Source of the DNA: Candidatus Brocadiia bacterium
GTDB taxonomy: Bacteria; Planctomycetota; Brocadiia; SM23-32
NCBI GenBank assembly: GCA_046538485.1
Contig: JBKHIT010000027.1
Span: forward strand, 1-61,090
Direction of reading: 5' to 3'
DNA length: 61,090 bases
In this document: positions 4,766-59,970 of the stretch, piece after piece
How positions within the stretch are numbered: the stretch's first letter is position 1
Layout: every line of letters begins with the position of its first letter
Program-made: the position numbers and the translations under genes
Notes under the pieces: model-generated
What the model saw: the letters and a program-made list of their open reading frames with translations, nothing else
Told to the model about the DNA's origin: nothing
The model's database searches: none

Positions 4766-5059
4766 ATGCGGACCGACAGCTACCTGGCATTTCACGGCAT
4801 TTGTCCGCCTCAAGTCCCCCTTCGTCCGCCTGAGCGGACTCAGCTGAACTCGAGTCTGCAGGATACGCGGTCGAGAAGCGGAGTTGCAAGCTTACAGAAT
4901 GATTGACACCAGACATGAAGTTTATGTTACAACAACCTTTAAAGGCTTTTCCGAAGGAAACGTGAGGGATTTGCGCCCGGCTCTGTTCGGGAATCGGTGG
5001 CAATCTCAAGCCAGTCCAGCGTTGTCAAACAGGAAAATGACCCACAGCGCAAAGTCCTC
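4766..5059 (+). repeat. Second copy of the 294-bp repeat at 350-643
   Basis: Gap-free by-eye alignment to 350-643 with about 11 substitutions; both copies end at CAGCGCAAAGTCCTC. Confidence 0.95.
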
Positions 5060-5070
5060 GCCGGGGGCGC

Positions 5071-6942: not shown

Positions 6943-7159
6943 GGTGAAAGGGGCCTCTGCAGGTAAGAGAATCGTGAATTGCGGGATTTGTAGGTATTGT
7001 CTAAGCGGCCGGGGAAAAGTCAAGTGATAACGAAGATTTTTTGGAATCCAAGCCTTGATATTGAAGGCCGTAAGGGGTATATTAGTTGTGGGAGTATATC
7101 GTTCAAACTCACTTTGTTGCAGTGTAAACAACTGAATTTCAGAGCAAAGGGGTTGTTAT

Positions 7160-9052: not shown

Positions 9053-9059
9053 AACCGGT

Positions 9060-9300
9060 GCTTCATTCTGTCTGCTCCCCTTTTGAGAAAGCCAGGAGTT
9101 TTTCCAGTCCCTTAGTCGTTTTACAGAGTGCTGGAGTACTTTTCTGATTCCCCCACCTTTCTTGATGGCCTCCGGTTCGTACTCGAGGGTTACCCTGCCC
9201 GAAAAACCAGCACCCCATAACCTTTCCAGCCACTGTTGCGAATAGCTGGCCCCAAGCGGGATTTTCAATCCGAAGTTGAGTTCCGGGCTGTTCACGTATG
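9060..9300 (-). pseudogene. Possible 3' remnant of a sugar phosphate isomerase/epimerase (TIM barrel)
   Basis: Translation LWGAGFSGRVTLEYEP resembles the GY/FxGxxxxE motif; no credible start. Confidence 0.3.
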
Positions 9301-9525
9301 CACCTCGCGGAGACAAGGGGTTCGGGCGTAAAAACCGGCACGGATTTGCAAAACCGAGAGTTTACTATAATATCCCTCGTCTGGTTGCGCAATGCTGACA
9401 TCTCGCCTCAGTACATATTGGCTGGAAAGATGCCTCGGAATGCTGCAAAATAGTACTGAAGATCCTGCTTTTGTCGATAAGGGGAGCGGACGGAGCAGGA
9501 ATAGCACCCCTACAGCAGAAGGTGA

Positions 9526-10440
9526 ATGCAAATGAGCGATAGTGCCCCGCAGGATCAAGAACATCCAGAGATAATACATCAGTTTCTCGTTGAAGAAGAG
9601 CCCCACTACGTAACCGTGGGAGGTGAAACCGACTTTTTTAAAAGTGCTTTTGAGCAGAAAATTCCGCTTCTTCTCAAAGGGCCGACCGGTTGTGGGAAAA
9701 CCCGTTTTGTCGAACGCATGGCATACGAGATGGAACTGCCTCTGATTACCGTTTCGTGCCACGAGGATCTCTCTGCGGCGGATTTAGTGGGTCGTTTCCT
9801 TTTTAAACAAAATGAAACGGTTTGGGAAGACGGCCCCCTTACCCTTGCGGTTCGTTATGGGGGGATTTGTTATCTGGATGAAATTGTCGAGGCCCGGAAC
9901 GATACGACCGTTATTGTCCATTCTCTAACAGACCACCGCCGGTTACTGTATATCGATAAGATTCAGGAAGTGATCCGCGCCCACCCCGATTTTATGATGG
10001 TTCTCTCCTACAACCCGGGTTACCAGAATGTCAGAAAAGATTTAAAAGAAAGCACCAAACAGCGTTTTTCTGTCATTAGTTTTGATTATCCCCCGGTCGA
10101 TCTGGAAACCCGCATAGTGATGGAAGAAGCAGGAATCAAAGAAAGGTTGGCCCGCACCCTTGCCGAGATGGGGGAAAAGATCAGAAATCTCAAAGGATAC
10201 GGTTTGGAAGAGGGGGCCAGCACAAGGCTTCTTGTTTACGCGGCGAAGCTGATTGTCGGGGGTGTTGCGCCGCGTGATGCGTGCGCTGGAGCGATATCTC
10301 GCGTTCTCACCGATGACAACGAAATTATGGCGTCGGTCGAGGACATCTTAAATTTGTATTTCCCGGCGGAAAGTGAACAAGAAAATGACTCGCCACACGC
10401 TGAAAAGTCGACGGTCGAGCCATCAATCCCTGATGAATAG
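9526..10440 (+). CDS. CbbQ/NirQ/NorQ family AAA+ ATPase
   Basis: GPTGCGKT Walker A, CHEDL, CYLDEIVEAR, SYNPGYQ, KDLKESTKQRF, GLEEGASTRLLVYAA. Confidence 0.92.
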   Translation: MQMSDSAPQDQEHPEIIHQFLVEEEPHYVTVGGETDFFKSAFEQKIPLLLKGPTGCGKTRFVERMAYEMELPLITVSCHEDLSAADLVGRFLFKQNETVWEDGPLTLAVRYGGICYLDEIVEARNDTTVIVHSLTDHRRLLYIDKIQEVIRAHPDFMMVLSYNPGYQNVRKDLKESTKQRFSVISFDYPPVDLETRIVMEEAGIKERLARTLAEMGEKIRNLKGYGLEEGASTRLLVYAAKLIVGGVAPRDACAGAISRVLTDDNEIMASVEDILNLYFPAESEQENDSPHAEKSTVEPSIPDE

Positions 10441-10457
10441 AACTCTCTCCCCATTAG

Positions 10458-27120: not shown

Positions 27121-29076
27121 ATGGCGACTGAAGAATATCTGGAAATCAGAGCCGATCAGGAAGAACCCACGGAGTACAAAGATGGGTTCGGCCTGAAAGC
27201 CATTCTGGGCGGCTTGTTCGTCGCATTTCTGGTTGTGCCGGGCTCAATGTTCATGTTTTTGATGCTCGGCCAGCGGCTGACCCAGGCCGCCATCTGGGTC
27301 ACGCTGATTATTATGCTGGAAATCACGAAACGCTGTCGGTCCACGCTCACCCGCCAGGAAATGTTCGTTATCCATAGCGTGACCGCCGGAATGCTGGCCG
27401 CAGGGATCGGCCGTTTCTATAATTTTATCTGGATGCAGTATTTTGTCCGAAGTGATGCTGCTATCCAGTTCGGGGTGGTTGACCGGCTTCCTTTCTGGGT
27501 CGCTCCGCCGCCCGATAGTGCTGCGTATCTGCAGAGAAATTTGCTTCACCCCGACTGGTGGCCGATGATTGCACTGATGGCCATCGGGATCCTGTGGAGT
27601 CGGATCAGCTTTTTCTCTCTCGGATATGCTCTTTTCCGCATCACCAGCGACGCCGAAAAGCTTCCTTTTCCCCTCGCCCCGATCGCCGCAAAAGGAATCA
27701 CGGCTCTGGCCGAGAGCGAAGAGGAAAGCTGGCGCTGGCGATGTTTCTCTATCGGTTCCACGGTGGGTATCGCGTTCGGCTTGATATACGTGGCGATACC
27801 AACTTTGACGGGGGTGTTTCTGAAGAAACCACTGTACCTGCTCCCCGTCCCATTTTACGACTTTACAACCAAAATGCAGGAGGTGAAATGGCTCAGAGCC
27901 GTGCCTCTTGCTCTGAACACCAACCTCCACCAGATTTTCATCGGATTCGTGCTTCCTTTCTGGATGGTTGTGGCCAGTTTCGTGGCTGGCGTGCTCGGGC
28001 GTCTTGTCCTCAACCCGATCCTGTTTCGTGCGGGGGTTCTCCAACGGTGGGAACCGGGGATGGACTACATCGAGACAGGCGTGGCGAACCGGTTTGACTT
28101 CTGGCTCAGTTTCCAAATCGGGACAGCCCTGGCGATCGCTATACTCGGGTTCTATCAGGCGTTCCGCGGGATGCTTAATGCCAGAAAGGAAGGGAAAGAT
28201 AAGGGGGTAAGGCTGCTGGCGCCCCCCAAGGGCCGTGGTGACATTCCGATTTCAATTTCGCTTCTGTTCTACGTCGCTCAGACTTCCTGGACCATTCTGC
28301 TGGCCCATTGGTTGGTGCCCAAATTTCCCGTCTGGATCATGATGGTTTTCGGATTCGGCTATACTCCGATTATGTCCTACGTCCACGCGCGCCTGCTTGG
28401 ACTCACCGGACATCGGGTGGGGATTCCTTATGCGCGACAAGCAACTTTTATCCTCAGTGGTTACAAAGGAGTGGATATATGGCGCGCGCCGATTCCAATC
28501 AGCGGTGGGTCCGGTGGAGGTGCGCAACAGTTCCGCCAGATTGAACTGACGGGGACGAAGTTTACCAGTATTTATAAAGCCCAGTTCTTTGTGATCCCCG
28601 TGTCGATTGTTGTTAGTTTGTTATTCTGGTCGTTCATTTACAGGATGAGCGATGTCCCCGAGGATTACCCCTACGCAATGCGATTTTGGCCACGGGATGC
28701 GGTCATGCGGGCGTTCTGGATGACTGCGACGACAAGCGGGAATGCTTTTTTCCTGGAAGCCTTTAAGCTGCGATTCGTCGGCATGGGATTGGCCTACGGT
28801 GTGGTGGCGTATCCCATATTGCGCATATTGGGAGCACCGACGCTGTTGCTTTATGGAACTATTCGCGGATTGGCCGGCGACCCGATCGATGCTGTCCCCG
28901 AACTGACCGCGGCGCTCATTGGGCGTTTCTATATGGCTCGAATTTTTGGGAAGCGACGGTGGAACAATTTCACGCCTGTTCTCGCGGCTGGTTTTGGATG
29001 TGGTATCGGTCTGGTGGGAATGGTCTCGATGGGAATGCGCCTTATTTCCAGTGCGGTGACGATGCTGCCGTTCTAA
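27121..29076 (+). CDS. OPT-like multi-pass membrane transporter
   Basis: Many TM helices; LTRQE and EKLPFPLAPIAA motifs reminiscent of the OPT family. Confidence 0.7.
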   Translation: MATEEYLEIRADQEEPTEYKDGFGLKAILGGLFVAFLVVPGSMFMFLMLGQRLTQAAIWVTLIIMLEITKRCRSTLTRQEMFVIHSVTAGMLAAGIGRFYNFIWMQYFVRSDAAIQFGVVDRLPFWVAPPPDSAAYLQRNLLHPDWWPMIALMAIGILWSRISFFSLGYALFRITSDAEKLPFPLAPIAAKGITALAESEEESWRWRCFSIGSTVGIAFGLIYVAIPTLTGVFLKKPLYLLPVPFYDFTTKMQEVKWLRAVPLALNTNLHQIFIGFVLPFWMVVASFVAGVLGRLVLNPILFRAGVLQRWEPGMDYIETGVANRFDFWLSFQIGTALAIAILGFYQAFRGMLNARKEGKDKGVRLLAPPKGRGDIPISISLLFYVAQTSWTILLAHWLVPKFPVWIMMVFGFGYTPIMSYVHARLLGLTGHRVGIPYARQATFILSGYKGVDIWRAPIPISGGSGGGAQQFRQIELTGTKFTSIYKAQFFVIPVSIVVSLLFWSFIYRMSDVPEDYPYAMRFWPRDAVMRAFWMTATTSGNAFFLEAFKLRFVGMGLAYGVVAYPILRILGAPTLLLYGTIRGLAGDPIDAVPELTAALIGRFYMARIFGKRRWNNFTPVLAAGFGCGIGLVGMVSMGMRLISSAVTMLPF

Positions 29077-29122: not shown

Positions 29123-30748
29123 ATGAACGAAAAACCAACAGAACAGCCTTCGGATCAGCAATCCATGGATATGCCGGATGCCGAGGATCCAGAGACGCTG
29201 CGCCGAGAGGTGGAGATTGAAACAGGGGCACTTCTCCCGAAGTGGCTGTTTGTCACAATCTGGATTGTGTTCGGGGGTTGGTCTATATTCGCGCTTTCTT
29301 GGATGGGGTACTCGATTTATATACAGCGAAATACCCTGCATTTCCTTAGCTTGGTGCGGGGGCCGTGGGAAGATGAGATCCCGGAGATGGACTCCGAGGT
29401 TATCGAAAAAGGCGTTAATTTTATGATGCAAAAGCCGCGGCAAAGTCTATTATACGTGATACAGGAATTGCTCCGGGAAAAACATAAGGACCCACGAATG
29501 GAACGGGCCATCGTTCTGCGGAAAGCAATTGATTGGGGGGGGGAGTCCAAACGTCGCGCTTTGTTCAAAGTCCTGTTGGAGAACATTTCCGATGAAGGCG
29601 AATTCCCACCGAATTATGAATTGAGCGATGAAAATAAAAAGATTCTCCAGCGTCTCGTGAAAGAACGTGTGCTGGGGGCGTTTCTTAAAGATGTGGATCT
29701 GGCCCATAAGCTGCTCTATGAGCCGACGAAAGAGTGGGGCTTTTCCAGGCCGCGAATGAAGCTATTCAAAAGTCTGGTGGAAAATCTGGATCTCGATGGG
29801 GACTTTGTCGAAGGTTACGAAGTGCCTGAAGAATTGAAAGATACCCTCGCGGCTGTGCAGAAAGAAAATGCCGCACGTTATACGAAGAGCTACGAAGGCC
29901 AGAAAATCACAGAAGTTTTTCAATGGATCGCAAGAGGGCATAAAACGCGGCCGGAAGGTCCGGAAAAGAGGAGGATCCATGCACTCCTTTCAACATACGA
30001 AAAACACTTGTTCCGCGATTCAGAAAAAGAAGTGCTGCTGGAGCTTTCGGAGAAATGGGGTAATAGTAAGGAAACGCTGAAACGGGATATAGCTGCCAAT
30101 TTTAAGCGAATACTGAATGACGAGCCTGCCGTCCTGACCCGGGAGCAAGAAAAACAGTGCGAGCAGGCCGCTCAAGAATGGGAAAACTTGTATCAAAAGG
30201 GTCGGCGACGGCTTTGCGCTCTTGAACTGAAGTTCGTGCGTTATATCGAAGAACATGAGCCGGTCCAGGGGATTATGATTCTCACAGGAGAATCCCTCGA
30301 CCATCCCGAAATGTGGGATATGGTCCAGCTTCTGGATGAACCATATCCCGGTGCGCGAGAACAACTGCGTGATGCAGTGTTTCGACTGCGGAAGCATAAG
30401 TATATTTTGATCTACCTCAAGCAATTTATTCGAAAAGATTCAATCAACCCGGTGATGGCTGTGGAGACCGCCCGTATGACTCAGGACGAACATGAAGCAC
30501 TATTGCGCCGGGAGAATTACCGCCGCCGTCTCGCCTGTATTGCCGTTGTGGGAAGAATCGTCAGGGATTACTGCAAACAGCCGTTCGACATAAAAGGTGT
30601 GGATTTGAACCGGGCAGAACAAAGAAAATACTTCAAGGAACGGACAGTCAGAGCTCTCGAAAGTGTTGTTGAAGATCGCCGGGTTGGAGAAGCCGCTCAA
30701 AAAGAGCTTCAGAAGATCAAAGCTGTCTGCCCAGAAATCGTCGACTGA
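29123..30748 (+). CDS. Hypothetical single-TM, helical/charged protein
   Basis: 541-aa ORF 46 bp after the transporter; one N-terminal TM segment. Confidence 0.7.
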   Translation: MNEKPTEQPSDQQSMDMPDAEDPETLRREVEIETGALLPKWLFVTIWIVFGGWSIFALSWMGYSIYIQRNTLHFLSLVRGPWEDEIPEMDSEVIEKGVNFMMQKPRQSLLYVIQELLREKHKDPRMERAIVLRKAIDWGGESKRRALFKVLLENISDEGEFPPNYELSDENKKILQRLVKERVLGAFLKDVDLAHKLLYEPTKEWGFSRPRMKLFKSLVENLDLDGDFVEGYEVPEELKDTLAAVQKENAARYTKSYEGQKITEVFQWIARGHKTRPEGPEKRRIHALLSTYEKHLFRDSEKEVLLELSEKWGNSKETLKRDIAANFKRILNDEPAVLTREQEKQCEQAAQEWENLYQKGRRRLCALELKFVRYIEEHEPVQGIMILTGESLDHPEMWDMVQLLDEPYPGAREQLRDAVFRLRKHKYILIYLKQFIRKDSINPVMAVETARMTQDEHEALLRRENYRRRLACIAVVGRIVRDYCKQPFDIKGVDLNRAEQRKYFKERTVRALESVVEDRRVGEAAQKELQKIKAVCPEIVD

Positions 30749-40159: not shown

Positions 40160-41164
40160 TCACCGTGACCGCTTCCCGAATAATTTTTCAATGGCAGTTT
40201 CCAGAGCCTGCCCCCGCAAGCCTCGGCCCCGTATGATTCCGTTGCCGTCGATCAATATCATGTTCGGAATGCCACGCACGTTGTAGCGCCCCAGCATTTT
40301 TTCTTTGGTTTTCCCTTCCAGAAGGACCTGGGGCCAGGGCATTTTATTTTTTTTAATGAAGTCTTCCAGCTCATCCTCATCTCGATCCAGGCTCACACCA
40401 AGGACGAGGAGGCCTTTCCGGTGGTATTTTTTGTAAACTTTTTTCAGGTTTGGTATCTCGCGCCGACACGGCCCGCACCACGTCGCCCAGAAATCGAGCA
40501 GGAGGGGGCGGCCTTTGGCGCTTTTGGGTGAGACTGCGGTTCCCCCGAGTGTCTTGAGTTTAAAATTAGGAGCACGATTTCCGACGGATGAACCTCTGTC
40601 CGGTTTTTCGGTGGTGCGGTCCATTTCGCTTCCCCCGCCCCTATCTTCGGTTGGTTTGCCAAAACGCGCCGGTTTGCCGATCTTGACTGTTTTGTCCTCG
40701 CGTTTCCAGCTCATATTACTCAGAGAACAGATTTTATCGAGGGTTTTCTCGACAGATCCACGGAAATTGATGGAAATTCTGGTCCCGCCTGCCGGGATAT
40801 CCTGCTCATAGAGCCTGATGTTTGCGTCTGTTTTGGCACGAAGCGCTTTGACAACGTGACTTAAGGGGGTGTTCTGGAAGTTAAGAGCAACTGGTTTTTG
40901 CAGTGGGTCGGTGGACGGACCTTCTCTACCGAGCCTGGTGTCTGAGGCTGAGTCGCCAGCGGCTCCGTTCTCGGCGAGCTGTTTCTGGAGTTTTTTAACT
41001 CGAGTTTTGAGCAGTTTGATGTGGGCCTTCTGATACCGAACCTGTTTTTCAAGGTCGTCCACTCTTTTCTTGAGTGCGTTAAAATCTTTCTCGCTGATCG
41101 GTTCAGCGGTTGCGATTCCGGCAACGCCGAAGAGTACGAGCCAGATCCATGCGATGCGTTTCAT
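40160..41164 (-). CDS. Exported TlpA-family thioredoxin with coiled coil and STN-like domain
   Basis: Signal peptide; LNFQNTPLSHVV STN-like segment; LDFWATWCGPC; GVSLD; RGIP. Confidence 0.85.
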   Translation of the reverse strand: MKRIAWIWLVLFGVAGIATAEPISEKDFNALKKRVDDLEKQVRYQKAHIKLLKTRVKKLQKQLAENGAAGDSASDTRLGREGPSTDPLQKPVALNFQNTPLSHVVKALRAKTDANIRLYEQDIPAGGTRISINFRGSVEKTLDKICSLSNMSWKREDKTVKIGKPARFGKPTEDRGGGSEMDRTTEKPDRGSSVGNRAPNFKLKTLGGTAVSPKSAKGRPLLLDFWATWCGPCRREIPNLKKVYKKYHRKGLLVLGVSLDRDEDELEDFIKKNKMPWPQVLLEGKTKEKMLGRYNVRGIPNMILIDGNGIIRGRGLRGQALETAIEKLFGKRSR

Positions 41165-41643
41165 AGTCCTTACCTCCTGTTAGATTGCCCCGTTTGCGCA
41201 CATAGAATCTTTACACCTGACATAAGCTCAACCTGCCTGCGAGCAGGAAAATCTGTTTCTTTTCCACCTGGTTACCACTTTCGACCATAGCGAGATTTCC
41301 TTTAAGTGTCAAAGGCATTGTAGCGGCGGTGTTTGCCGATGCAACCATATAAAACGGTGTTCAATAAAGATTCCACCCTGGCCGGGTAACAATAGCTCCC
41401 GATTATCCGTAAAATACGGGCTGCGTGGGTCATCGCGAGCGGATCGTAAGATGGGCGAAGTTTATCCGCCTCGGGCGTGGGTTGTCCGCCTCAGGTTGGT
41501 TTATCCGATCTCCCGCGGGCAATCCCGTCGTTTTTTCGTCCGGCTTTTTGCTTCCTGTCGCGATCCCGTGATTGAAATCCCTCCGTAGTTTCGGTATAAG
41601 CACCACCCGTTCAGCAAGGTTCAACTCAACAGGGAGATTGGAG

Positions 41644-42945
41644 ATGACTCGGAAGACAATTGAGACGCCCGGCGACACCAGCTGGTTTACGCATGATCGG
41701 TTCGGCCTTTTTATTCACTGGGGGACCTATGCTCTTGCCGCCCGTCATGAATGGGTGAAAAACCGCGAGGAAATCGACGATGAGACGTATGTCCAGAAAT
41801 ACTTCGACCATTTCAATCCGGACCTTTACGATCCGGAGCACTGGGCCGATGTGGCCGCAAACGCGGGAATGAAATATTTCGTCATCACCACCAAACATCA
41901 CGAAGGGTTCTGTCTGTGGGACTCGAAACTGACCGATTATAAGGCCACAAACACCCCCTACGGACGCGGTTTGCTCCATCCGATGGTTGATGCGTTTCGG
42001 GACCGGGGGCTGAAAGTTGGATTTTATCATTCGCTGATCGATTGGCACCATCCGGAGTTTCCGATCGACGGAATTCATCCGATGCGCAACCATCCCGATG
42101 CCGGACAGATCAACAAAGAACGCGACGTCAGGGAATACGCGGAGTATTTGCGCGGACAAGTTGAAGAATTGCTCACCGAATTCGGCGACGTCAGTATCCT
42201 GTGGCTGGATTTTTCATACGCGGGAAGCGAATGGGCCGAAAAACCGGGTTTTGCTGGCAAAGGCCGGGATGATTGGCAGAGCGAAAAACTCTACGAGATG
42301 ATTCGCGAGCTTCAACCCAACATCGTGCTGAATGATCGACTCGACCTGGACGAAGGGTGGGATATCAAAACTCCGGAGCAGTACCAGCCGCGCGATTGGG
42401 TAGAGGTTGACGGTCAGCCTGTGGTATGGGAAGCCTGCCAGACTTTCAGCGGATCGTGGGGATACCACCGGGAAGAAGCGAGCTGGAAAAGTACCGGCCA
42501 GCTCGTGCGCATGCTCGTCGATACCGTCAGCAAGGGGGGCAATCTGTTACTCAACGTCGGCCCGACCGGCCGCGGCGAGTTTGATCATCGAGCTCTGGAT
42601 CGTCTCTCCAGCATGGGAGAATGGATGAAACGGCACAGCCGCTCGATCTACGGCTGCACCGAGGCGCCCGAAGAGTTCGAAACGCCTCAGGATTGCCGCC
42701 TGACCTGCGATCCGGAAACAAACCGGCTTTACGTGCATATCTTCGCCTGGCCGTTCAAACAGCTGTTCCTCGATGGATTCGCGGGGAAGGTCGAATACGC
42801 GCAACTTCTCAATGATGCCTCGGAAATTCCTTTTGAAGAGCCGGAGTCGCATAAGGCCGGGCCGATGGAGGATACCGTTGTTTTGAACCTCCCGGTCCCC
42901 AAACCGAACGTGACAGTTCCTGTTGTTGAACTTTTCTTGAAATAG
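41644..42945 (+). CDS. Alpha-L-fucosidase (GH29)
   Basis: RFGLFIHWG, TTKHHEGFCLW, LWLDF, GGNLLLNVGP. Confidence 0.93.
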   Translation: MTRKTIETPGDTSWFTHDRFGLFIHWGTYALAARHEWVKNREEIDDETYVQKYFDHFNPDLYDPEHWADVAANAGMKYFVITTKHHEGFCLWDSKLTDYKATNTPYGRGLLHPMVDAFRDRGLKVGFYHSLIDWHHPEFPIDGIHPMRNHPDAGQINKERDVREYAEYLRGQVEELLTEFGDVSILWLDFSYAGSEWAEKPGFAGKGRDDWQSEKLYEMIRELQPNIVLNDRLDLDEGWDIKTPEQYQPRDWVEVDGQPVVWEACQTFSGSWGYHREEASWKSTGQLVRMLVDTVSKGGNLLLNVGPTGRGEFDHRALDRLSSMGEWMKRHSRSIYGCTEAPEEFETPQDCRLTCDPETNRLYVHIFAWPFKQLFLDGFAGKVEYAQLLNDASEIPFEEPESHKAGPMEDTVVLNLPVPKPNVTVPVVELFLK

Positions 42946-51245: not shown

Positions 51246-51598
51246 TTTAGCCTCCGGTTCCTCGAAAATATAACACCACCGGCATTAACCCGAGTATAGC
51301 CCGGAACTCACACGATACTCAAGTTTTCCGTTTGATTTACGCTCCGAAGCGTCATATCTTCCTGTTTTTCAGGGAGGAGAAACTGATATGTCGCCCGCCG
51401 AAGAAGATGTGGCGGTTACCCGAGCCCCCCTGGCGTCTCTCCCTTGAAAATTCAGCTTTGAAAAATGTCTGGACCACAAAATACATTCGTGAAAACTCCT
51501 TGTGGGGTTTCTATAATAGGGGCAGTGGATTTTGCAAGGTCTATCGGCGTGTAAGAAATGCCTCCGTCTGGTAGCTATTGAAAAACAGGGAGAATACG

Positions 51599-52957
51599 AT
51601 GGCGCTCAGCACAGCGAATGAGAAAACTATGCCGGAAACCAGAAGAAGAGCCGACGAGGAGTTGTTGCCGGACATTGAGATGTACGGCGACTATGATGTG
51701 GTAGTGGCGGGGGGAGGACCGGCTGGGTTATGCGCCGGACTGGCCTCGGTGCGTCGTGGAGCGAAGACGCTTGTGGTGGAACAGTTCAACTGTCTCGGCG
51801 GAATGGCAACAACCGGGTTACATCAGCATATAGGGGTCTTTATGGGCGAGGGGGGACGCCCGGAGATTGTGGGTGGATTACCCCGGGAGATTGGGCAACG
51901 AGCGGAAGAGAACTGGGGGGCATCTTTCGGCGGGCGTTATCTTGACGTGGAAATTGAGGGTTTTAAGTGTCTTCTCGACGAGATGGCCGGGGAAGCAGGT
52001 CTTGATGTTTTGTTCTACAGCCTGGTCGTGGATGTGATTCTGGAAGAGGGCCGGGCCGCGGGCGTGGTAATGAGCAACAAATCGGGCCTTTTCCTGGCGG
52101 AGGCGGATCGCATTGTGGATTGCACGGGCGATGCGGATGTGGCTTTTCGCGCGGGGTGTCCGGTGAACTTTGGGCGTCCCGAGGACGAACGGACTCAACC
52201 CGGAACGCTCATGTTCCGTCTGGGTGGTGTTGATTGGGACAAATTGCGCGAATACCGGGAGGATGACCCGCTGCTGGAAGATTTCTGCCAACGGGCAGTA
52301 AAGGAAGATTTGATGCGACCCTGGCAGAGCCGGCTGATGGGATTCTGGTATGTGCCGAGCCGTCCGGATCAGGTGGGCGTGAATTTTACCCACATGCATT
52401 TTGATGGTACCTCGGCATCGGAACTCAGCTCCGCTGCTATGACCGGCCGACGACAGGTGCAGGAGGCGGTGCGGGCGATGAAAGCCTTGCTGCCCGGATT
52501 TGAAGACGCCTATCTGATCGATACGGCAGTGCAGATGGGGGTGCGGGAAACGCGGAGAATCGTGGGGAGTTATATACTGACCGAAGAGGATATTCGCGAA
52601 CAGAAGATTTTTGAGGATAGCATTGGACTCGGCAGTGCCTATGTGGACATTCATAATGTCGACGGGCCGGGGATGGACAAACGAGCCGGTTTTTCTCTGC
52701 CGGAAGGCGGATACTATTCGATCCCTTACAGAACTCTTGTGCCGCAGGAAGTGGACAATCTCCTGGTTGCGGGCCGGTGCCATAGCTGCACTCACGAGGC
52801 GGCCGGTTCGACACGATGGATTACACAGTGTATGGTTATGGGGCAGGCCGCGGGAATGGCCGCGGCGCTGAGCGCGCGCGAAGAAGTTTCTCCCAGAGAA
52901 CTCGATGTATCGGAACTCCAGCGTAAACTCCTAAGCGAGGGCGCGATTCTGGATTGA
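51599..52957 (+). CDS. FAD-dependent oxidoreductase
   Basis: VAGGGPAG, LGGMATTG, DCTGDADV, GVRETRRI, IPYRTL, NLLVAGRC. Confidence 0.88.
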   Translation: MALSTANEKTMPETRRRADEELLPDIEMYGDYDVVVAGGGPAGLCAGLASVRRGAKTLVVEQFNCLGGMATTGLHQHIGVFMGEGGRPEIVGGLPREIGQRAEENWGASFGGRYLDVEIEGFKCLLDEMAGEAGLDVLFYSLVVDVILEEGRAAGVVMSNKSGLFLAEADRIVDCTGDADVAFRAGCPVNFGRPEDERTQPGTLMFRLGGVDWDKLREYREDDPLLEDFCQRAVKEDLMRPWQSRLMGFWYVPSRPDQVGVNFTHMHFDGTSASELSSAAMTGRRQVQEAVRAMKALLPGFEDAYLIDTAVQMGVRETRRIVGSYILTEEDIREQKIFEDSIGLGSAYVDIHNVDGPGMDKRAGFSLPEGGYYSIPYRTLVPQEVDNLLVAGRCHSCTHEAAGSTRWITQCMVMGQAAGMAAALSAREEVSPRELDVSELQRKLLSEGAILD

Positions 52958-52981: not shown

Positions 52982-53716
52982 ATGGTACGAAGAGAAATCA
53001 CAGCAGCAATTCTGATCTTGCTGGCATGTCTTTCAATCTGGGCGGCGGGAAAAAAAGAGAAGCCGAAAGAATTTGAGAGCTGGCTGGTCTATCAAAATTC
53101 GAAGACTGATGATGTGGGCTACGTGCATATTATTCAGAAACCGAGCGAGGATAAAAAAGCCCCTTGGGTTGTGATTGTCGAAGAAAGAATCTGCAAAGGC
53201 GGGAAAAGTGTACCTGTTGACCTCATTCTGTTTGCAAAGGATAATCGCTACCTGACGCCGGCCCGATTTGTGTGCCAGGGGGGCGGAAGCGGGGGTGGTA
53301 CGTTCAGCGCGGAAGTGAACGACGGAAAAATCGAAGCGCGGGCCGGGCGAAAAAAGATAGAAATAGAAATGCCGGAGAACACGGCACCGTTTATGGCTCT
53401 TTTCCGTATTGTTGAAGATCTCCCTTTCGATAAAAACAAAGTATTCAAGTTCAGCTGCCTTCGTTCCACGAGCCTCGAGATCGGGAAAAATCAGAAAATA
53501 GAATACGAAGGGAAGAAAAAAGTAGATCTGGGTAACCGGGAAATCAAGCTTCATCAGTTTCTGTATTCCGATAAAGAAGACAAAATAGGATATTTTTGGC
53601 TTGACGATAATCACCGTTTAATAAGTGCTTTAATAGCTGGCCGAGAGACTTTCACCCGGACAACTCCCAAAAGGGCTCGCCAGGTGGTTGAAGAGTGTCT
53701 CGACGTAGCCCACTGA
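52982..53716 (+). CDS. Hypothetical exported protein
   Basis: 244-aa ORF with signal peptide and AAGGA RBS. Confidence 0.65.
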   Translation: MVRREITAAILILLACLSIWAAGKKEKPKEFESWLVYQNSKTDDVGYVHIIQKPSEDKKAPWVVIVEERICKGGKSVPVDLILFAKDNRYLTPARFVCQGGGSGGGTFSAEVNDGKIEARAGRKKIEIEMPENTAPFMALFRIVEDLPFDKNKVFKFSCLRSTSLEIGKNQKIEYEGKKKVDLGNREIKLHQFLYSDKEDKIGYFWLDDNHRLISALIAGRETFTRTTPKRARQVVEECLDVAH

Positions 53717-53784
53717 AAATTTTCTTTCCAGGTTTTTAGCATTCTGATATCTTTCTCCGCTCAGGATTTTTCTGTGACAGCGAC

Positions 53785-54129
53785 ATGGCAAAGATAACGA
53801 AGTCTATCGAAGCGATGCGAGCCCGCCGTGCATACGCTGCGACTGACCGGATTATCTGCGAGTTTTGGCTCGGGAAAGCTTTTATGGGCGAGGAATTCAG
53901 CGCGAGCGGTTGTGCCCACGCGAGGATACGTTTCGAAGGGACGGGGCGAATTAAACAGGTTATGCTTTTGCGTGATAGCGAGCCGTGGCGGGAGTGGACT
54001 CCGCACGGAACGGAGACTGACATCCAATTTGCTCTGAGTGCTGAAGATATAAAAGGACACTATTTTTACGTTCGTATGATGCAGGAGGACAGCAATCTGG
54101 CATGGTCCAGTCCGATTTGGGTGGATTGA
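53785..54129 (+). pseudogene. C-terminal fragment of a DUF3604-like protein
   Basis: EAMRARRAYAAT...FMGE...YFYVRMMQEDSNLAWSSPIWV; these motifs normally end a much longer protein. Confidence 0.6.
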
Positions 54130-54169
54130 AGTCCGAAGAACCGCTGACCAAGATCGGGGAGTACCGCAG

Positions 54170-54745
54170 ATGGTTGAATTTCGCCGATTGGACGATAAAA
54201 CGGCGGTTCTGGAGTACCGGGATATAACGCGATGTCTGGCAGGGTGGGTCCTGGGAGTGCCTTTGACCATTGCCTATGTGGGCGCGATGGCGTCTGTGAC
54301 CCTTTTTGGAATTGGGATCGCTCCGCCGGCACGATTGCTGCTTTTTTGTGTTTCGGTACTGTTATATTTTATCGTTGGGTTTCATGGATGGCACCAGTAT
54401 GGCGTACGATTTTGGAACCCGCTGTGGGCGTTCACGATGATCCGAAGGACGCGATTCAGCCGAAGTGCCGGGACGGCTCGTATGAAGCTCGGTCCGTCCG
54501 CGATCGCGATTCCCAAAAGTATCAATCTCGACGAGATTGAATCGGTGGTGTACTGCGATCAGGGGGAAGAATCCAAAACATGGAACCGTTTGGTCATCCA
54601 ATCGACGTCGGGGGATCGGTGGCTCCTTGCGATTGAAGAATCACATGGACGACGCGTGGAGGCGGTAGGCAAGGAACTCGCGGATTTTCTTGGGGTCGCT
54701 TTCCACACCGGGACGGGATCACCTCGTATGAAGGAAGAGGCGTAA
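54170..54745 (+). CDS. Hypothetical two-TM membrane protein
   Basis: 191-aa ORF, GGGAG RBS, two TM helices, C-terminal ELADFLGV. Confidence 0.65.
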   Translation: MVEFRRLDDKTAVLEYRDITRCLAGWVLGVPLTIAYVGAMASVTLFGIGIAPPARLLLFCVSVLLYFIVGFHGWHQYGVRFWNPLWAFTMIRRTRFSRSAGTARMKLGPSAIAIPKSINLDEIESVVYCDQGEESKTWNRLVIQSTSGDRWLLAIEESHGRRVEAVGKELADFLGVAFHTGTGSPRMKEEA

Positions 54746-54863
54746 TCAGGGGCTGAAGAAATACTTTACGGTGCCGGGAGAGTGTCAAGACGCAGGCGAT
54801 TTTGAAAAAAGAAAGAACCGGTGTAAAATACGGCGGCCTATTTTAAGTCGGAACGAATGAGCT

Positions 54864-56096
54864 ATGACTGCAACTGTTGATGATGAAAGATACCGGGTTC
54901 TTTCTCGAACGCGCGCGATAGATCCGCGGACGCGTAAACCCGTCCCCGCACTCGTGCTGCAATCAGAGGACGGTGTCTTTCTCGAAAAGATGTTACCACG
55001 GGGGGAAAGGCGGCGGGTGCAGATCGAAAAAGATCCGGAATTTTACCGGGCTTTTGCGGATCCTGAGCCAGCGGGAGAGTCGACGCTTGGCAACCTTTAT
55101 TTTTACGTAACTTCCAGATGTAATCTTTCCTGCCCGGTTTGTTACGAGGCAAACCGTAATGTCGGTGAGCCTTCTCTGGAGTCCATGGGGAAGGTTTTGG
55201 GGTCGATGAGCCGAATGCAGGTTCTCCTTTGTGGTGCCGAACCTACATGCCGGGACGAACTGCCGGAGATTATCTCGCTGGTGGACCGGGAAAATACGCC
55301 CTACATCATTACAAATGGTATAAAGTTGAAGGACCGAGGTTACTGCTTGCGCCTGAAAGAAGCCGGCCTGAAGTACGTTATACTCTCTTTTAACGGCCTG
55401 ACCGATGATGTCTACAGGACGATAAACGGGCGCCCACTTCTGCGGGAGAAAATGACTGCCCTGGAGAACCTGCGGGAACTCGACATGGAGGTCTTTCTAT
55501 CGACAACGATTGCGCGGGGAGTGAATGACGCGCAGATAGCTGATCTGGCCGAATTTTATCTGAAAAGACCGTTCATTCGGCAGATCCGTTTCCGCGCGAT
55601 GGCCTCTCTGGGGGCGTTTCTGCAAACCGAGCGTATTTTTATGAGCGAACTTCTCACCATGGTTTGCGACGGATTTGGCATTGACCGGGAAATGGCGATG
55701 CGCCACCTTTTGTTCATGGACAGGCTGGGCAAAACGCTGAAGAAAGACTATTTGCGGCCGCGACTTTGTTCGCTGAAGGTGGACATGAACCATTCGATGC
55801 GCCCAATTGCTTCCGAGTATGGCTTTGGTTACCATAATGAAAATGGGGATGGGCGGTTCGCTATCCTTTCACATGCAATACGGGCGTGGGGTTTGAAATA
55901 TGCTTTGCGACAGGCCTGGAACCGGGTGGGGAAGCACCGTTATGTCGGCCCCCGCAATAAATACCGCGTCAGTCTGCGTGTCTGGCCCGACCGGGACACG
56001 ATGGATCTCGGTATGGGGTCACGGTGTATGGCTGGATACTGGCGAGATGGGAGGGTGCAACCGTTTTGTCTCTGCAACGCACAGAGGGAAGCCTGA
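54864..56096 (+). CDS. Radical SAM protein resembling the Tes/MJ0619 family
   Basis: TSRCNLSCPVCY, GAEPT, TNG, GVND, C-terminal RCMAGYWRDGRVQPFCLCN. Confidence 0.8.
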   Translation: MTATVDDERYRVLSRTRAIDPRTRKPVPALVLQSEDGVFLEKMLPRGERRRVQIEKDPEFYRAFADPEPAGESTLGNLYFYVTSRCNLSCPVCYEANRNVGEPSLESMGKVLGSMSRMQVLLCGAEPTCRDELPEIISLVDRENTPYIITNGIKLKDRGYCLRLKEAGLKYVILSFNGLTDDVYRTINGRPLLREKMTALENLRELDMEVFLSTTIARGVNDAQIADLAEFYLKRPFIRQIRFRAMASLGAFLQTERIFMSELLTMVCDGFGIDREMAMRHLLFMDRLGKTLKKDYLRPRLCSLKVDMNHSMRPIASEYGFGYHNENGDGRFAILSHAIRAWGLKYALRQAWNRVGKHRYVGPRNKYRVSLRVWPDRDTMDLGMGSRCMAGYWRDGRVQPFCLCNAQREA

Positions 56097-56923
56097 ACCT
56101 TGAGAGAGGGTCAGCGGACTGCGAAAGCCGTTGTGACGGGCGGAAGCTGGCGTATTTCTTCCGGTTGATTCGTCTCGCTTCCTGGTGGGACAAGCTTTTT
56201 TTGGTCGGCGGTGCCGCAGCTTTATTGATGCTGGTTTCTCCGACGGGCCGAGATTGGGCGTTGTGGGGAGCTTTTGTTGTCCTGACCGGTTTGCTATTGA
56301 TTCATGCCTATATTTTTAATGATATCTGTGATACGCCGTACGATGCAGCAGTTGGACGCGATACAGCTGACATTTCTGAACGGGACAGGCGAATCGTTCT
56401 CGGTTTTTCGGGTGCTCTGGGTGCTCTCATTCTGGTGGTGTTTTTCCCGATTTTTGCTGCGTTGCTCCTGGGAGCCAGCTACTTTCTCATGTCTCTTTTC
56501 TACTCCGCCCCACCGTGTCGCTTGAAAGGTCGGGGGATTCTCGGGGTGGTTATTGCGGGATTTGCGCAGCGTCCCCTCCTTTTTTTGATATTTAGTTTGA
56601 CCCTGGGGCTGTACACCGTCCCAGTTCTTCTGCTTATCGTCTGGTTGTTCAGCGGCGGACTGATTGCGATGCTCGGTCATCAGGTGGGCGATTATCGTGA
56701 CGATCAAATCAACGGGATTTCCACTTTCGCTGCCCGCTGGGGCCGCTCGATCAGTCTTGTTCTCTGTGGGCTTTTTGGACTGCTCTTTCTGGTATGTTGT
56801 TTGCTGCCGCTATGGTATCTCAAAGCTCATTGCGCGCTGATTTTATTCCTGGGCATGGGCGGACTTTCCGTCATTGTCGGGTGGCAGTGTATGCGGGGGT
56901 ATCTATTGCTGCGGGCCCGATGA
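56024..56923 (+). CDS. UbiA family prenyltransferase (true start probably near 56090-56150)
   Basis: NDICDTPYD, YSAPPCRLK, HQVGDYRDDQINGISTFA; multiple TMs. Confidence 0.85.
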   Translation: MYGWILARWEGATVLSLQRTEGSLNLERGSADCESRCDGRKLAYFFRLIRLASWWDKLFLVGGAAALLMLVSPTGRDWALWGAFVVLTGLLLIHAYIFNDICDTPYDAAVGRDTADISERDRRIVLGFSGALGALILVVFFPIFAALLLGASYFLMSLFYSAPPCRLKGRGILGVVIAGFAQRPLLFLIFSLTLGLYTVPVLLLIVWLFSGGLIAMLGHQVGDYRDDQINGISTFAARWGRSISLVLCGLFGLLFLVCCLLPLWYLKAHCALILFLGMGGLSVIVGWQCMRGYLLLRAR

Positions 56924-56982
56924 GCCAGCCTGCAGTCGTTTGACCTTTCGGAGGCCGGTCCGAGGGTTTTGACGCGGGGGGG

Positions 56983-59757
56983 TCATTTGTTGTCGGCGAT
57001 AGCCAGACGCACCCAACGCCAGGTTTGGCCGATGATCAGAGGTAGTATGGCGCAGCCGATTATCACACCCCAGTCGCGCAGATCGGGCGACATTGTTTTG
57101 AGGATGTTTTTAAGAAACGGGACATAAACAGCTGCGAGCATAAGGCCGGCGCTCAGGATAATAGCTCCGATCATCCACATATTGCTGAACCAGTCTCCCA
57201 GCCGCATGGGTTCGTGCTGTTTGCGACAGTTGAAGACATGGAAAAGCTGTGCGAAAGCGATGGTAAGAAAACTAAGGGTCACGGCATCGTAATGTCCTTG
57301 GGACGGATCGTAGCCATAAGTGCGGAAACCATAGAAAAAAGCGAGCAGTGTCGCGAGGGTCATCAGAATGCCGTATCCGCCGATACTTCCGAGCATGTTG
57401 CGTTCGAGCAGTGGTTGATCCGGGTCTTTTGGTGGCCTTTCCATGACATCCGGTTCCCCGGGCTCGACCGCGAGAGCCAGCGCCGGAAAGACGTCGGTTA
57501 TGAGGTTCATCCAGAGGATTTGCAGGGGCAGGAGGGCGAGAGGTTTACCAATCAACGAGGCCCCGAGCATCGTGAGGATCTCACCCAGGTTGCAACTGAA
57601 CAGATAGGTAATGAATTTTTGAATATTGTCATAGATGATTCGGCCGCGATGCACGGCTTCACCGACCGTGCTGAACTGATCGTCCAGCAGCACCATATCG
57701 GACGTCTCTTTTGCAACGTCGGTGCCCCGGATCCCCATTGCCACGCCGATATCCGCGCTTTTGAGGGCGGCGGCATCATTGACGCCGTCTCCGAGCATCG
57801 CGCAGATTTCTCCGCGTTTTTGCAGACCATCGAGGATACGCATTTTATGTTCCGGGGAGACCCGAGCGAACACTTCGGTCCCTTCGAAATGTTCTGCCAG
57901 TTCTTCCTCATTGAGAGCCTCGATTTCGCGACCTGAGAGGACGGGACCATCCGACGGGGCGACCCCGAGTTCAGCGGCGATTGCGCGCGCCGTCATAGGT
58001 TGATCTCCCGTTATCATCACCGTCTTGATGCCGGCTTCTGTCAGTCTTTTTACGGTTTCGGCGGCTTCTTTTCGCGGTGGGTCCATGATCCCGGCCAGGC
58101 CGAGCCAGAGCAGATCCGTAAAGGCCTCCTCGCGATCTTCGGGGGGCTCATCCACGGTGCGGCAGGCAAGCCCCAGCACGCGGAGGCCTTTTTCGGCCAT
58201 ACTCTCGTTTTTGCGCTCGATTTGCTGCCTTTTATCTTCCGTCATTTCCCCGATACCTTCGGGTTCAAGGACGCGGTTGCAATGGGGAAGAACATTCGTC
58301 GGAGCGCCTTTGACGCTGAGCATTTTGCCTTTAGCTTCCGCGTAGAGTTCCCCCAAGTTCGCGTTCACGGTCCCCATTATCATCGTTTCGCTGGTGAAGG
58401 GGTATTCATGTTTTTCGGGATGATTTTCATGGAGTTCTGCGCGGCTGATCCCCGCTTTCTCTGCGGCGACCACAAGGGCTCCCTCGGTGGGGTCGCCTGT
58501 GATCTCCCAGTGGCCATCATCATTTTCGCGGAGCGTGGCGTTGTTGCAGAGCGCCCCGGCGCTGAGGGCTGCACTTATGCGAGGATCGGAACGGGGATTA
58601 ATGGTACCTCCTTCTCGCTTGAATTCTCCTTCAGGGCTGTAACCAACGCCAGAAATTTCAACATCTTCACCGGGAAGCGCCAGCAACCGCTGGGCCATCT
58701 CACTACGGGTCAGAGTCCCTGTCTTGTCGGTGCATACCGAGGTGACGGAGCCAAGGGTTTCGACGGCCGGAAGGTTTCGGATAAGCGCATTGCGGCGGGC
58801 CATTTGCTTCATCCCGACCGCAAGCGTGATGGTCGCTACGGCAGGCAATCCTTCCGGAATTGCCGCGACAGCCAGGGCAATGCCCGCTTCGATCATATGC
58901 CAGATTTGTTCCCCCTGGACGATCCCGGAGATTGCTACGACAATCGCTACCCCGAGGCAGATCCAGATCAGTCTGCGGGACATCCGTGCGAGCCTTTGTT
59001 CCAGTGGGGTTTCTTCCTCTTCGACGCCTTCCAGCATCTTGCCCACGCGTCCGATTTCTGTCGCTTCGCCCGTGGCCACGACAATTGCCCGGGCATTCCC
59101 GGTCGTGAGGTTGGTGCCGCGGTAGACCATATTTTCACGGTCTGCCAGAGGGGTCTCCGGATCTTCCAATGGGGCGGTGGATTTCGATACAGGCAGAGAT
59201 TCCCCGGTCAGCGGCGATTCATCGATTTTAAGTTTGACCGCTTCAAAAAGACGCGAATCGGCGGGCACCGACTGTCCTTCTTCGAGCAAAATGACGTCAC
59301 CGGGCACCAGTTCAGCGGCGGGGAGAGTTCTTGCGTCACCGTCACGAATCACTGAAGTTGTTGTTCGGCCGAGCTTCTGGAGGGCTTCCATGGCCCGATT
59401 GGCCCTGAGTTCGGTGATAAAGCCGATGCCCGAATTAAGCAGTATGACCACAACTATGCTAATACCCTCCGGCATATGCCCGAGCGCAAAACTGACAATT
59501 GCAGCTGCGGCCAGAAGCAATACCACAACATTCTTAAATTGATCAAAGAGAATTTCATGCCAGGGGACCGATTCTACTTTGCGCAGTTCGTTGCGACCAT
59601 ACCGCTGCTGTCTCTCATCGGCCTCCTCGGAACTCAGACCTGTGGAAAGATCGCTTCCGAGTTGCTCTGAAACCTCTTCGACCGGCATGCAGTGCCAGTC
59701 CTGTTGCAGACGGGATTGCTGTTGCTGTTTTTCCGCTGGATCGTTGTTTTGTGACAC
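56983..59757 (-). CDS. P-type cation (Ca2+-like, P2A) ATPase
   Basis: LTGES, IPEGLP, DKTGTLT, KGAP, DPPR, MITGD, GDGVND; GTG start with GAGGG RBS. Confidence 0.93.
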
Positions 59758-59970
59758 AGTTCCCTCGATCTCAAGGTGCGAGCGAAAAATCAGGATAGAG
59801 GCAAGCCGTCCCGGGTGCAACTGAGTGAGTCAGATGGGCAAGAACTAAATATCTCTGGATTGTTTCGGATATGCGCCACATAAATTTTCTCTTGACGCTT
59901 TTGTGCAGGCGTTCTAAAGTGCTAACGGTGCGGCCGTGGCCTCAGGCCAGAATAGAAAGTGGGGATTTCC

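Follow-up and report, generated by a model that had tools for sequence, protein, structure and literature searches.

What might a bacterium build with an enzyme of the radical S-adenosylmethionine (SAM) type that carries the fold of tetraether synthase (Tes, or GDGT-MAS) without its N-terminal metal sites, and whose gene overlaps that of an orphan UbiA-family prenyltransferase? The question is raised by contig JBKHIT010000027.1 of a Candidatus Brocadiia bacterium (assembly GCA_046538485.1), analysed over its positions 1 to 61,090; this whole stretch of 61,090 nucleotides is called the window here. To our knowledge, Tes/GDGT-MAS is the only enzyme of its fold with known chemistry, in which inert lipid tails are joined by a C(sp3)-C(sp3) bond via a cluster-bound intermediate. 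In this study, we find that the window gene belongs to a large ligand-less clade of Tes-fold proteins and that its own subclade is paired with one family of UbiA proteins, and we propose that the resulting two-gene cassette probably builds, and then remodels, a previously undescribed isoprenoid lipid. An earlier inspection of the letters and their translations (hereafter the sequence-only reading) had described two open reading frames here, with the UbiA gene overlapping or directly following the radical SAM gene, and both were found where it had placed them:

54864..56096, + strand: Tes-fold radical SAM gene, 410 amino acids (open reading frame, Pfam, NCBIfam, profile, model and fold matches)
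54894..55046, + strand: beta domain at the N-terminus (residues 11-61), a homolog of the rubredoxin/Zn-ribbon domain of Tes with its four metal ligands replaced (alignments, profile, model)
55119..55142, + strand: CX3CX2C motif (C86, C90, C93) of the SAM-cleaving [4Fe-4S] cluster (28/28, 64/64, 42/42 and 5/5 rows of the four alignment groups given below)
55767..56069, + strand: C-terminal auxiliary-cluster region, C302, C388 and C402 with D381, Y392 and R372 (alignments, profile, GDGT-MAS ligand scheme)
56066..56923, + strand: orphan UbiA-family prenyltransferase, start uncertain (TTG 56066, GTG 56024 or CTG 56093)
56318..56344, + strand: first Asp-rich motif of the UbiA, NDICDTPYD (N85, D89, D93 in the 285-residue numbering), N, D and D invariant in 10/10 partners
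56678..56704, + strand: second motif of the UbiA, HQxxDxxxD (H205, Q206, D209, D213), invariant in 10/10 partners

The family placement of the radical SAM protein follows from profile and structure alike. A profile built from 21 sequences of its near clade (the subclade of its closest relatives, delimited below) matched GDGT-MAS in the Protein Data Bank (PDB; 7TOL) at E 4.8e-45 and MoaA at 1.7e-18, so that the resemblance to Tes lies far beyond chance. An AlphaFold2 model computed from 148 sequences reached a predicted local distance difference test score (pLDDT) of 94.4 and a pTM of 0.93. With this model, Foldseek ranked 7tol and 7tom at the top (E 3.2e-28, TMq 0.77 against 0.40), every other radical SAM enzyme lying at about 0.4, and VIA-align superposed model residues 9-410 on GDGT-MAS (Z 37.0, root-mean-square deviation 3.3, 392 residues aligned), as against Z 20.9 over 248 residues, the core only, for MoaA 1TV7. 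Since the 392 aligned residues run from 9 to 410, the enzyme retains the helical region from which GDGT-MAS builds its lipid pockets; of the four-domain fold of 7TOL/7TOM, the model leaves the N-cluster domain uncovered. Pfam detects PF04055 only (residues 81-231, 63.3 bits over a cut-off of 29.5, E 4.2e-17), and this score together with the CX3CX2C, GxEP and TNG motifs makes the protein a member of the radical SAM superfamily. The same scan gave no match to the MoaA C-terminal domain PF06463 and none at E <= 0.01 to the SPASM domain PF13186, and the MoaA model TIGR02666 scores 68.8 bits against a cut-off of 284. The predicted structure is a whole GDGT-MAS/Tes fold, neither MoaA nor SPASM, and the grouping with Tes made by the sequence-only reading is borne out on profile, TMq and Z score together.

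GDGT-MAS holds four metal sites, which are a rubredoxin iron (ligands C9, C12, C33 and H36, pattern C-x2-C-x20-C-x2-H), an N-terminal [4Fe-4S] cluster (C73, C77, C80 and a His), the SAM cluster and a C-terminal [4Fe-4S] cluster, and its rubredoxin and N-cluster domains sit at the protein surface (Lloyd et al. 2022, PMC9433317). The N-terminus of the window enzyme matches the C-x2-C...C-x2-H ribbon column for column, and the four ligand columns, aligned with PF23545 relatives and with P0076, a protein named Tes in UniRef, hold D20, T23, L44 and G47. Of the 148 rows of alignment A4, 139 fall into four groups, with 28 rows from the near clade, 64 other ligand-less ones, 42 with the Zn ribbon and 5 that are Tes-like. 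Every Zn-ribbon row (42/42) and every Tes-like row (5/5) has Cys at the first three ligand positions, and His stands at the fourth in 36/42 and 4/5, while the near clade has D (24/28), T (24/28), L (26/28) and G (27/28). The beta domain itself is still present: the profile gives a separate significant N-terminal stretch against 7TOL (positions 8-89, independent E-value 2.2e-4), the model has strands at 11-19, 26-34, 37-43 and 49-55 with pLDDT 96-98, and the structural alignment with GDGT-MAS begins at residue 9. The Zn ribbon PF23545 was not detected in the window protein by the Pfam scan, and the CPxxCGxC segment is missing, its place being a gap of about 27-30 columns relative to P0071, P0073 and P0076. 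Both losses, that of every N-terminal Cys/His ligand and that of the CPxxCGLC motif, had been read from the translation and are confirmed column by column. Pattern-based labels under-call the ribbon, since P0150 and P0180, labelled as having no Zn site, match PF23545; both lie outside the ligand-less clade. In sum, the window enzyme is predicted to keep the two clusters that do the chemistry and to shed two peripheral sites. We regard the lost parts as peripheral because the C-terminal cluster of GDGT-MAS adjoins both lipid pockets, where it is the proposed site of a sulfur-carbon intermediate, the lost domains lie on the surface, and the M439A variant stays active (PMC9433317).

The loss of two of four metal sites would also be expected of a decayed or non-functional remnant of Tes, and the window UbiA has a CTG where its relatives have the ATG of an ATGA overlap. 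The phylogeny argues otherwise. A FastTree was built from 208 rows, each representing a cluster at 50% or 90% identity, with 5 MoaA rows as the root; 28 rows that were fragments or showed no recognisable motif had been dropped. In this tree every ligand-less relative of the window enzyme falls in a single clade of 94 rows (support 99). It is sister to a clade of 55 rows, 53 of them with the ribbon (support 100), and full Tes-type rows with both ribbon and N cluster branch near the base of the tree. The window protein falls in a subclade of 28 rows (the near clade; support 99), and the same two clades were recovered by IQ-TREE from 78 rows chosen across the groups (SH-aLRT 100 for 12 rows and 98 for 39 rows). 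Across 21 near-clade sequences, 41-53% identical to the window protein, 72 columns are invariant, all SAM-binding and cluster motifs included, and the closest relative, at 94%, is labelled Planctomycetes. With this constraint, a large and diversified clade, intact frames and a confident model, a decayed remnant is scarcely credible; judged from these alignments, the ligand-less state marks a clade and is not decay. The ligand loss reported by the sequence-only reading is real, although it is common to the 94-cluster clade and not special to this gene.

The catalytic motifs are retained throughout. CNLSCPVC, which supplies C86, C90 and C93, is present in the window protein, and these cysteines are kept in every grouped row of A4; G124, E126 and P127 (GxEP) and T150, N151 and G152 (TNG), which belong to the SAM-binding motifs, are invariant or nearly so. 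C302, C388 and C402 are kept in 28/28 near-clade, 64/64 other ligand-less and 5/5 Tes-like rows, C388 and C402 pair with cysteines of 7TOL in the hidden Markov model (HMM) alignment, and a C-terminal auxiliary [4Fe-4S] cluster with three Cys ligands is predicted. The pattern D381..C388..Y392..G396..C402 is likewise present, with its columns invariant in the near clade, so that the retention of the SAM motif and of the C-terminal D..RC..Y..DG...PFC, as first noticed, is sound. With an offset of 20 between the 7TOL chain and native numbering, which we infer because C9/C12 then fall on the ribbon cysteines and Met439/Tyr459 on a Met and a Tyr of the chain, the HMM pairs Met439 with R372, Asp448 with D381, Cys455 with C388, Tyr459 with Y392 and Cys470 with C402. 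Tyr459 of GDGT-MAS is conserved and stands beside the substrate terminus (PMC9433317). The near clade has in addition three cysteines of its own, C123 (28/28 rows), C129 (28/28) and C268 (27/28). C123 and C129 flank the GxEP SAM motif (window coordinates 55230-55250), C268 lies at 55665-55667, and as a trio they are invariant only in the UbiA-paired subclade; C129 also occurs in 39/64 other ligand-less rows and in 0 Zn-ribbon and 0 Tes-like rows. They could serve as a hydrogen-atom donor or as a new metal site.

The second part of the answer is the pairing. Eleven near-clade loci were found, 41-45% identical to the window, one in a genome labelled Candidatus Aminicenantes (L001) and ten on metagenome contigs (L080-L089); as three pairs are near-duplicates (L080/L081, L082/L083, L088/L089), they represent about seven distinct versions. 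A tblastn search with the window UbiA placed a homolog directly downstream of the radical SAM gene in 9/11 near-clade loci and in 0/98 other loci. At L088 only 255 nucleotides are left past the radical SAM gene, and these, read in frame, code for the start of the UbiA as far as its first Asp-rich motif, which brings the count to 10/11; L087, the eleventh, ends inside the radical SAM gene. The conserved pairing on which the sequence-only reading had relied is thus what the loci show. The UbiA start and the radical SAM stop overlap by four nucleotides in 6/6 loci measured (starts ATG in four, GTG in one and TTG in one), and no other neighbour of the pair is conserved in the near-clade loci. A 606-residue database protein (P0028) with the radical SAM and then the UbiA motifs in a garbled frame is most likely an assembly frameshift fusing the overlapping genes. 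The predicted complex of the two proteins scored 0.00 against a mark of 0.32 and was given no weight for or against.

In the window the overlap takes a different form. The radical SAM stop is the TGA at 56094-56096, and the window reads CTGA at 56093-56096, where relatives have ATGA with the UbiA start over the radical SAM stop; the window UbiA therefore starts at an upstream TTG or GTG, or at the rare CTG. Read by eye, no ATG, GTG or TTG lies between the radical SAM stop and codon 56165, so the UbiA must start within the radical SAM gene. The nearest usual start, TTG 56066, gives 285 residues, the same length as the 97%-identical P0237, and the frame is open on the + strand from GTG 56024 (the longest frame) to 56923.

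Such an arrangement bears on the possibility that the enzyme is a bacterial Tes homolog working on fatty-acyl or alkyl glycerolipids, in a coupling of the brGDGT or diabolic-acid type, with the UbiA functionally separate. Bacterial Tes homologs, some of them from Planctomycetota, have been proposed as brGDGT enzymes (PMC8941075; bioRxiv 10.1101/2024.06.25.600576), and GDGT-MAS as isolated carries E. coli phospholipids in its pockets (PMC9433317). However, a functionally separate UbiA is hard to reconcile with strict adjacency and a four-nucleotide overlap with one orthologous UbiA family across hosts of different phyla. Moreover, the window protein fails the threshold of E < 1e-50 to a Tes that was used in the bacterial Tes surveys (PMC8941075), the named Tes P0076 scoring E 1.6e-10 to it. 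Because of their thresholds, the published bacterial-Tes screens miss the ligand-less clade. We consider an acyl-lipid role highly improbable.

The UbiA partner belongs to the UbiA superfamily, with PF01040 as the only Pfam family on its reading frame (66 bits over a cut-off of 34.2), two Asp-rich motifs and a UbiA fold. Both motifs, NDICDTPYD and DYRDD, had been recognised at the outset, and their core residues are invariant in 10/10 partners. The ten partner UbiAs are orthologs of a single family; 33 of their columns are invariant, including both Mg-binding motifs and residues N85, D89, D93, Y146, S147, P150, R152, K154, R156, H205, Q206, D209 and D213, and they have family motifs of their own, an N-terminal RxR(D/E)xWDK and a loop EYSLPPxRFKERG; the first Asp of NDxxD is lost in 3/10, while the N..D..D core is invariant. 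Among NCBIfam models, PRK12875, PRK12884 and ChlG match 10/10 partners and the DGGGP synthase model NF009521/PRK12882 matches 5/10 (best E 1.7e-6), all far below cut-off (the curated cut-offs for DGGGP synthase, NF009521 and NF009522, are 296 and 353 bits). The quinone-type MenA, UbiA and MqnP models match at most 1/10, with E >= 6.5e-5. A profile of the partners found DGGGP synthase 6M31 best in the PDB (E 2e-4, positions 11-259) and chlorophyll synthase next (0.2); the profile was needed, as a single-sequence search of the PDB with the window UbiA gave nothing at E <= 1. The partner seems, weakly, nearer to the DGGGP synthase and chlorophyll synthase types than to MenA/UbiA. The sequence-only reading had staked its case on the UbiA being other than a plain MenA/UbiA quinone enzyme, and this agrees both with the model matches and with the presence of a separate MenA-like gene (L110) in the window genome. 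The UbiA model (pLDDT 82.8) has the UbiA fold, with 4tq3 as best structural match (Z 21.0 over 245 residues). A homologous-protein search with the window UbiA returned 4 relatives only, and an ESM Atlas look-up generic UbiA clusters only.

This placement leaves room for a cofactor pathway, in which the UbiA would prenylate a quinone-, pterin- or tetrapyrrole-like molecule and the radical SAM enzyme would modify the head group and not the tail, by methylation, ring formation or hydroxyl-independent tailoring. UbiA enzymes often serve quinone and tetrapyrrole pathways, the chlorophyll-synthase models weakly match all ten partners, and the extra near-clade cysteines C123, C129 and C268 would permit chemistry other than that of Tes. 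At one locus of the wider ligand-less clade (L093) a peptidase-U32 gene stands beside the radical SAM gene, and U32-family members act in anaerobic quinone hydroxylation. Against this stand the retention of the whole Tes fold, with its helical lipid-pocket region, the poor showing of the quinone-type models, and the lack of any other cofactor-pathway gene conserved beside the pair. Furthermore, the annotation of GDGT-MAS itself as a pterin methylase was rejected, its active site being a narrow hydrophobic tunnel (PMC9433317). On balance, we think head-group chemistry unlikely.

The cassette is rare, patchy and probably mobile. At E <= 1e-40, a near-clade radical SAM gene was found in 0/400 other sampled genomes of the phylum of the window (a search of 401 genomes, 243 of them of high quality), and in 0/200 other sampled genomes of the class to which the L001 genome belongs. 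On the metagenome contigs, a Y2-type transposase (L085:391-1047) and a PIN-domain gene (L080:34-480) flank the cassette, which fits a mobile unit. The rarity and the transposase are also what might be expected of an accessory terpenoid, in which case the UbiA-fold protein would be a membrane terpene cyclase or prenyl elongator acting on a polyprenyl diphosphate, and the radical SAM enzyme would go on to cyclise or rearrange the hydrocarbon, or to form a C-S bond in it with sulfur from the auxiliary cluster. UbiA-type terpene cyclases exist. A sulfur-carbon intermediate belongs to the chemistry of GDGT-MAS (PMC9433317). Nothing in these data sets a cyclase apart from a transferase; however, the invariant N..D..D core is typical of transferases, even with the first NDxxD Asp lost in three of the ten partners, and we find the terpenoid explanation very unlikely.

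The host genomes limit what the pair could be for. Besides the gene of the cassette, the window genome (G000; 5.19 Mb, 88.3% complete) encodes five members of the UbiA family, which are MenA-like, DPPR-synthase-like (252.7 bits, over the cut-off of 234), EboC/SCO3242-like, one orphan and one IspH-fused, and its own MoaA (L117, 259 bits); no second Tes-fold gene was found in it. As MenA-, DPPR-synthase- and EboC-like UbiAs and MoaA are encoded elsewhere in the genome, the cassette fills no housekeeping role. A two-gene unit found in unrelated hosts must draw on widely available substrates. The IspH-fused gene of the window genome (L115; contig C3, about 40753-42579) is an observation in its own right: in a reading frame of 609 residues, a full IspH (TIGR00216, 283.6 bits) is followed by a UbiA-like domain at the C-terminus (PF01040, 59 bits; prenyltransferase models of NCBIfam match weakly at residues 396-565), so that a prenyltransferase would here be fused to the enzyme that ends the MEP pathway.

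Taken together, we lean towards prenyl transfer by the UbiA followed by action of the radical SAM enzyme on the isoprenoid part, a reading that we consider somewhat better than even. The locus would be a cassette of two translationally coupled genes, complete in itself, that makes a modified isoprenoid lipid. The UbiA, an integral-membrane enzyme, would use a polyprenyl diphosphate as donor and pass the polyprenyl chain on to a common, membrane-associated acceptor, and its nearest kin, DGGGP synthase and chlorophyll synthase, suggest O-prenylation. The Tes-fold enzyme, peripheral to the membrane and made in step with the UbiA, would take the UbiA product as its substrate and draw the isoprenoid tail into a hydrophobic tunnel. 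At the CX3CX2C cluster SAM would be cleaved reductively; the 5'-deoxyadenosyl radical thus formed would abstract hydrogen from an unactivated carbon of the tail, and the substrate radical might be held on the three-cysteine C-terminal [4Fe-4S] cluster as in GDGT-MAS. As it lacks both the rubredoxin iron and the N-terminal cluster, the enzyme would presumably receive electrons at its SAM cluster straight from a flavodoxin or ferredoxin of the cell. As to the bond formed, a second turnover might close a C-C bond and join tails, as a true Tes would, giving a macrocyclic or two-headed lipid; we hold this further step to be improbable. In its broad outline the sequence-only reading is supported: the protein groups with Tes and not with MoaA/SPASM, and the UbiA is no plain quinone enzyme and its pairing is conserved, the two points on which it had said that it would stand or fall.

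Several observations weigh against the proposed action on an isoprenoid tail, or limit how far it can be pressed. Firstly, the clade has no member with a known product or activity, and the one characterised chemistry differs in its substrate, GDGT-MAS acting on saturated chains of glycerol diethers (PMC9433317). Secondly, the curated Tes equivalog NF045702 gives 106 bits against a cut-off of 450, over residues 74-256 and thus the core only, and the best NCBIfam match is instead TrsS (NF045646; 132.4 bits against a cut-off of 490, residues 81-266). Thirdly, the C-terminal HMM stretch on which the residue equivalences rest scores only 2.2 bits alone, and they therefore lean also on MAFFT alignments and the structural alignment; Y392 aligns with Tyr459 in the HMM alignment and in alignment A1, whereas in A4 that column is V in 4/5 Tes-like rows. 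Fourthly, the column of Met439, the labile C-cluster Met reported to be fully conserved in 1000 archaeal homologs (PMC9433317), is Arg (R372) in 28/28 near-clade rows; it is Arg or Lys in 63/64 other ligand-less rows and Met in 4/5 Tes-like rows. This replacement, together with C123, C129 and C268, may mean a chemistry different from that of Tes. On the side of the partner, placement is weak, all NCBIfam matches being far below cut-off and the fold search interleaving UbiA homologs (Z 17-21) with soluble trans-prenyl synthases (Z 16-18) without separating subfamilies. In the two host genomes (G000, the 88.3% complete window genome, and G401), PcrB/GGGPS was found in 0/2, with the control positive in 7/14 reference genomes, and a geranylgeranyl reductase over cut-off in 0/2. 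Finally, a cassette so rare would be an accessory trait and not the core membrane pathway of a lineage.

Two refinements of the original proposal follow. The radical SAM protein should not be annotated as Tes, because it falls short of the curated score and lacks the rubredoxin site, the N cluster and Met439, four defining marks of the Tes family; of the stripped-down Tes-like enzyme that had been proposed, the fold stands and membership in the Tes equivalog does not. Of the prenylated or ether lipid or cofactor that had been suggested as product, the archaeal-type ether in the strict sense lacks support, as PcrB/GGGPS was found in neither host genome examined.

Around the cassette little else is shared. 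The following site lies just upstream:

54802..54829, + strand: promoter-like site TTGAAA-16-TAAAAT, 10/12, 35 nucleotides upstream of the radical SAM start, a consensus match only

Such promoter-like sites number 3 in the region against 2.6 +/- 1.5 in shuffles, which is no evidence by itself. No Rfam family was found within 53600-57100, so there is no riboswitch clue. For the upstream reading frames at 52982-53716, 53785-54129 and 54170-54745, neither Pfam nor NCBIfam gave a family and tblastn gave no match in any of 109 loci, and on these grounds they were rejected as parts of the module; the FAD oxidoreductase (PF12831) at 51578-52957 was rejected as well, as it is not conserved beside the pair. 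Downstream, a convergent P-type ATPase on the minus strand (56983-59820) closes the unit. The remainder of the window holds mixed housekeeping and glycan-degrading genes without lipid context. It includes a reading frame of 1615 residues (22208-27055) whose sole domain is an FtsX-like permease near the C-terminus (residues 1339-1450), followed by two large reading frames (27121-29076 and 29123-30748) without any family.

Among the ligand-less loci examined, only the subclade of the window pairs with UbiA. A UbiA link for the wider clade was considered and rejected, as no PF01040 was present among the scanned reading frames of seven of its loci (L002, L003, L004, L090, L091, L093 and L095). Three of these, from genomes labelled Syntrophaceae, Smithella and Ignavibacteriae, carry ligand-less Tes-fold paralogs in dense gene clusters (L002, about 3400-11060; L003, about 800-8870; L004, about 2600-11930), with two such genes in tandem at L002 (5989-7242 and 7325-8590). 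Their neighbours are B12-binding radical SAM genes, a radical SAM gene with a sub-threshold DUF3463, CMAS-like methyltransferases, and GT2 and tetratricopeptide repeat (TPR) genes. The other four have as neighbours other radical SAM genes, a thiamine pyrophosphate (TPP) enzyme, a PMT_2-type transferase or a peptidase U32. At L003:3292-4902 and L091:1882-3594, an acetolactate-synthase-like enzyme with three TPP domains starts exactly where the ligand-less radical SAM gene ends; in two unrelated loci, this looks like a second conserved partnership.

A natural variant with only the SAM and C-terminal clusters points to the likely catalytic minimum of the Tes fold and offers a smaller enzyme for mechanistic work, and its strict coupling to one orphan UbiA family makes for a directly testable two-gene system for an undescribed isoprenoid lipid. 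The ligand-less clade, with 94 cluster representatives among those examined, is unstudied. There is an outside chance that the cassette gives bacteria a minimal and portable way of making an isoprenoid lipid that is membrane-spanning or macrocyclic, in which a two-cluster Tes-fold enzyme would weld the prenyl tails newly placed by the UbiA on a common bacterial acceptor, independently of the archaeal GGGPS/DGGGPS pathway. If a coupled or macrocyclic isoprenoid product were true, bacteria could be a source of lipids that are now read as archaeal biomarkers, and the two genes a bacterial source of 'archaeal-looking', biphytane-type biomarkers.

In a full-text search of a limited literature collection, no description of a Tes-type enzyme in an operon with UbiA was found, and the sole text with both 'tetraether synthase' and 'UbiA' was a review on archaeal lipid synthesis. 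Among known systems, the closest is GDGT-MAS/Tes (M. jannaschii MJ0619; 7TOL, 7TOM; NF045702), with which the window enzyme shares the whole-chain fold over 392 of 410 residues, the CX3CX2C motif, the three C-terminal cluster cysteines, the conserved Asp and the N-terminal beta fold, with Y392 as the probable equivalent of Tyr459. It differs in lacking the rubredoxin ligands, in the deletion of the N-terminal [4Fe-4S] domain and the replacement of Met439 by Arg, in being about 100 residues shorter with the extra cysteines C123, C129 and C268, and in being operonic with UbiA in bacterial hosts without GGGPS. With MoaA (GTP 3',8-cyclase; 1TV7) the likeness is confined to the radical SAM core, the MoaA C-terminal domain being absent. 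The same holds for the TrsS radical SAM (seleno)protein (NF045646), for which no function was found in its table row in PMC13188914; unlike TrsS, the window gene has no selenocysteine codon, and it scores far under the cut-off. The UbiA resembles DGGGP synthase (6M31) and the A. fulgidus UbiA homolog (4TQ3) in its NxxxDxxxD and DxxxD motifs, and stands apart from DGGGP synthase in falling far under the curated models, in its own RxR(D/E)xWDK and EYSLPPxRFKERG motifs, and in having hosts without PcrB. Lastly, the bacterial membrane-spanning lipid synthase Mss of Thermotoga and Thermoanaerobacter couples two lipid tails by radical chemistry in the absence of oxygen (PMC13159169). Mss is a different protein from Tes, since according to that paper the Mss genomes hold no Tes homologs, and by analogy the window enzyme may work in a manner like that of Mss.

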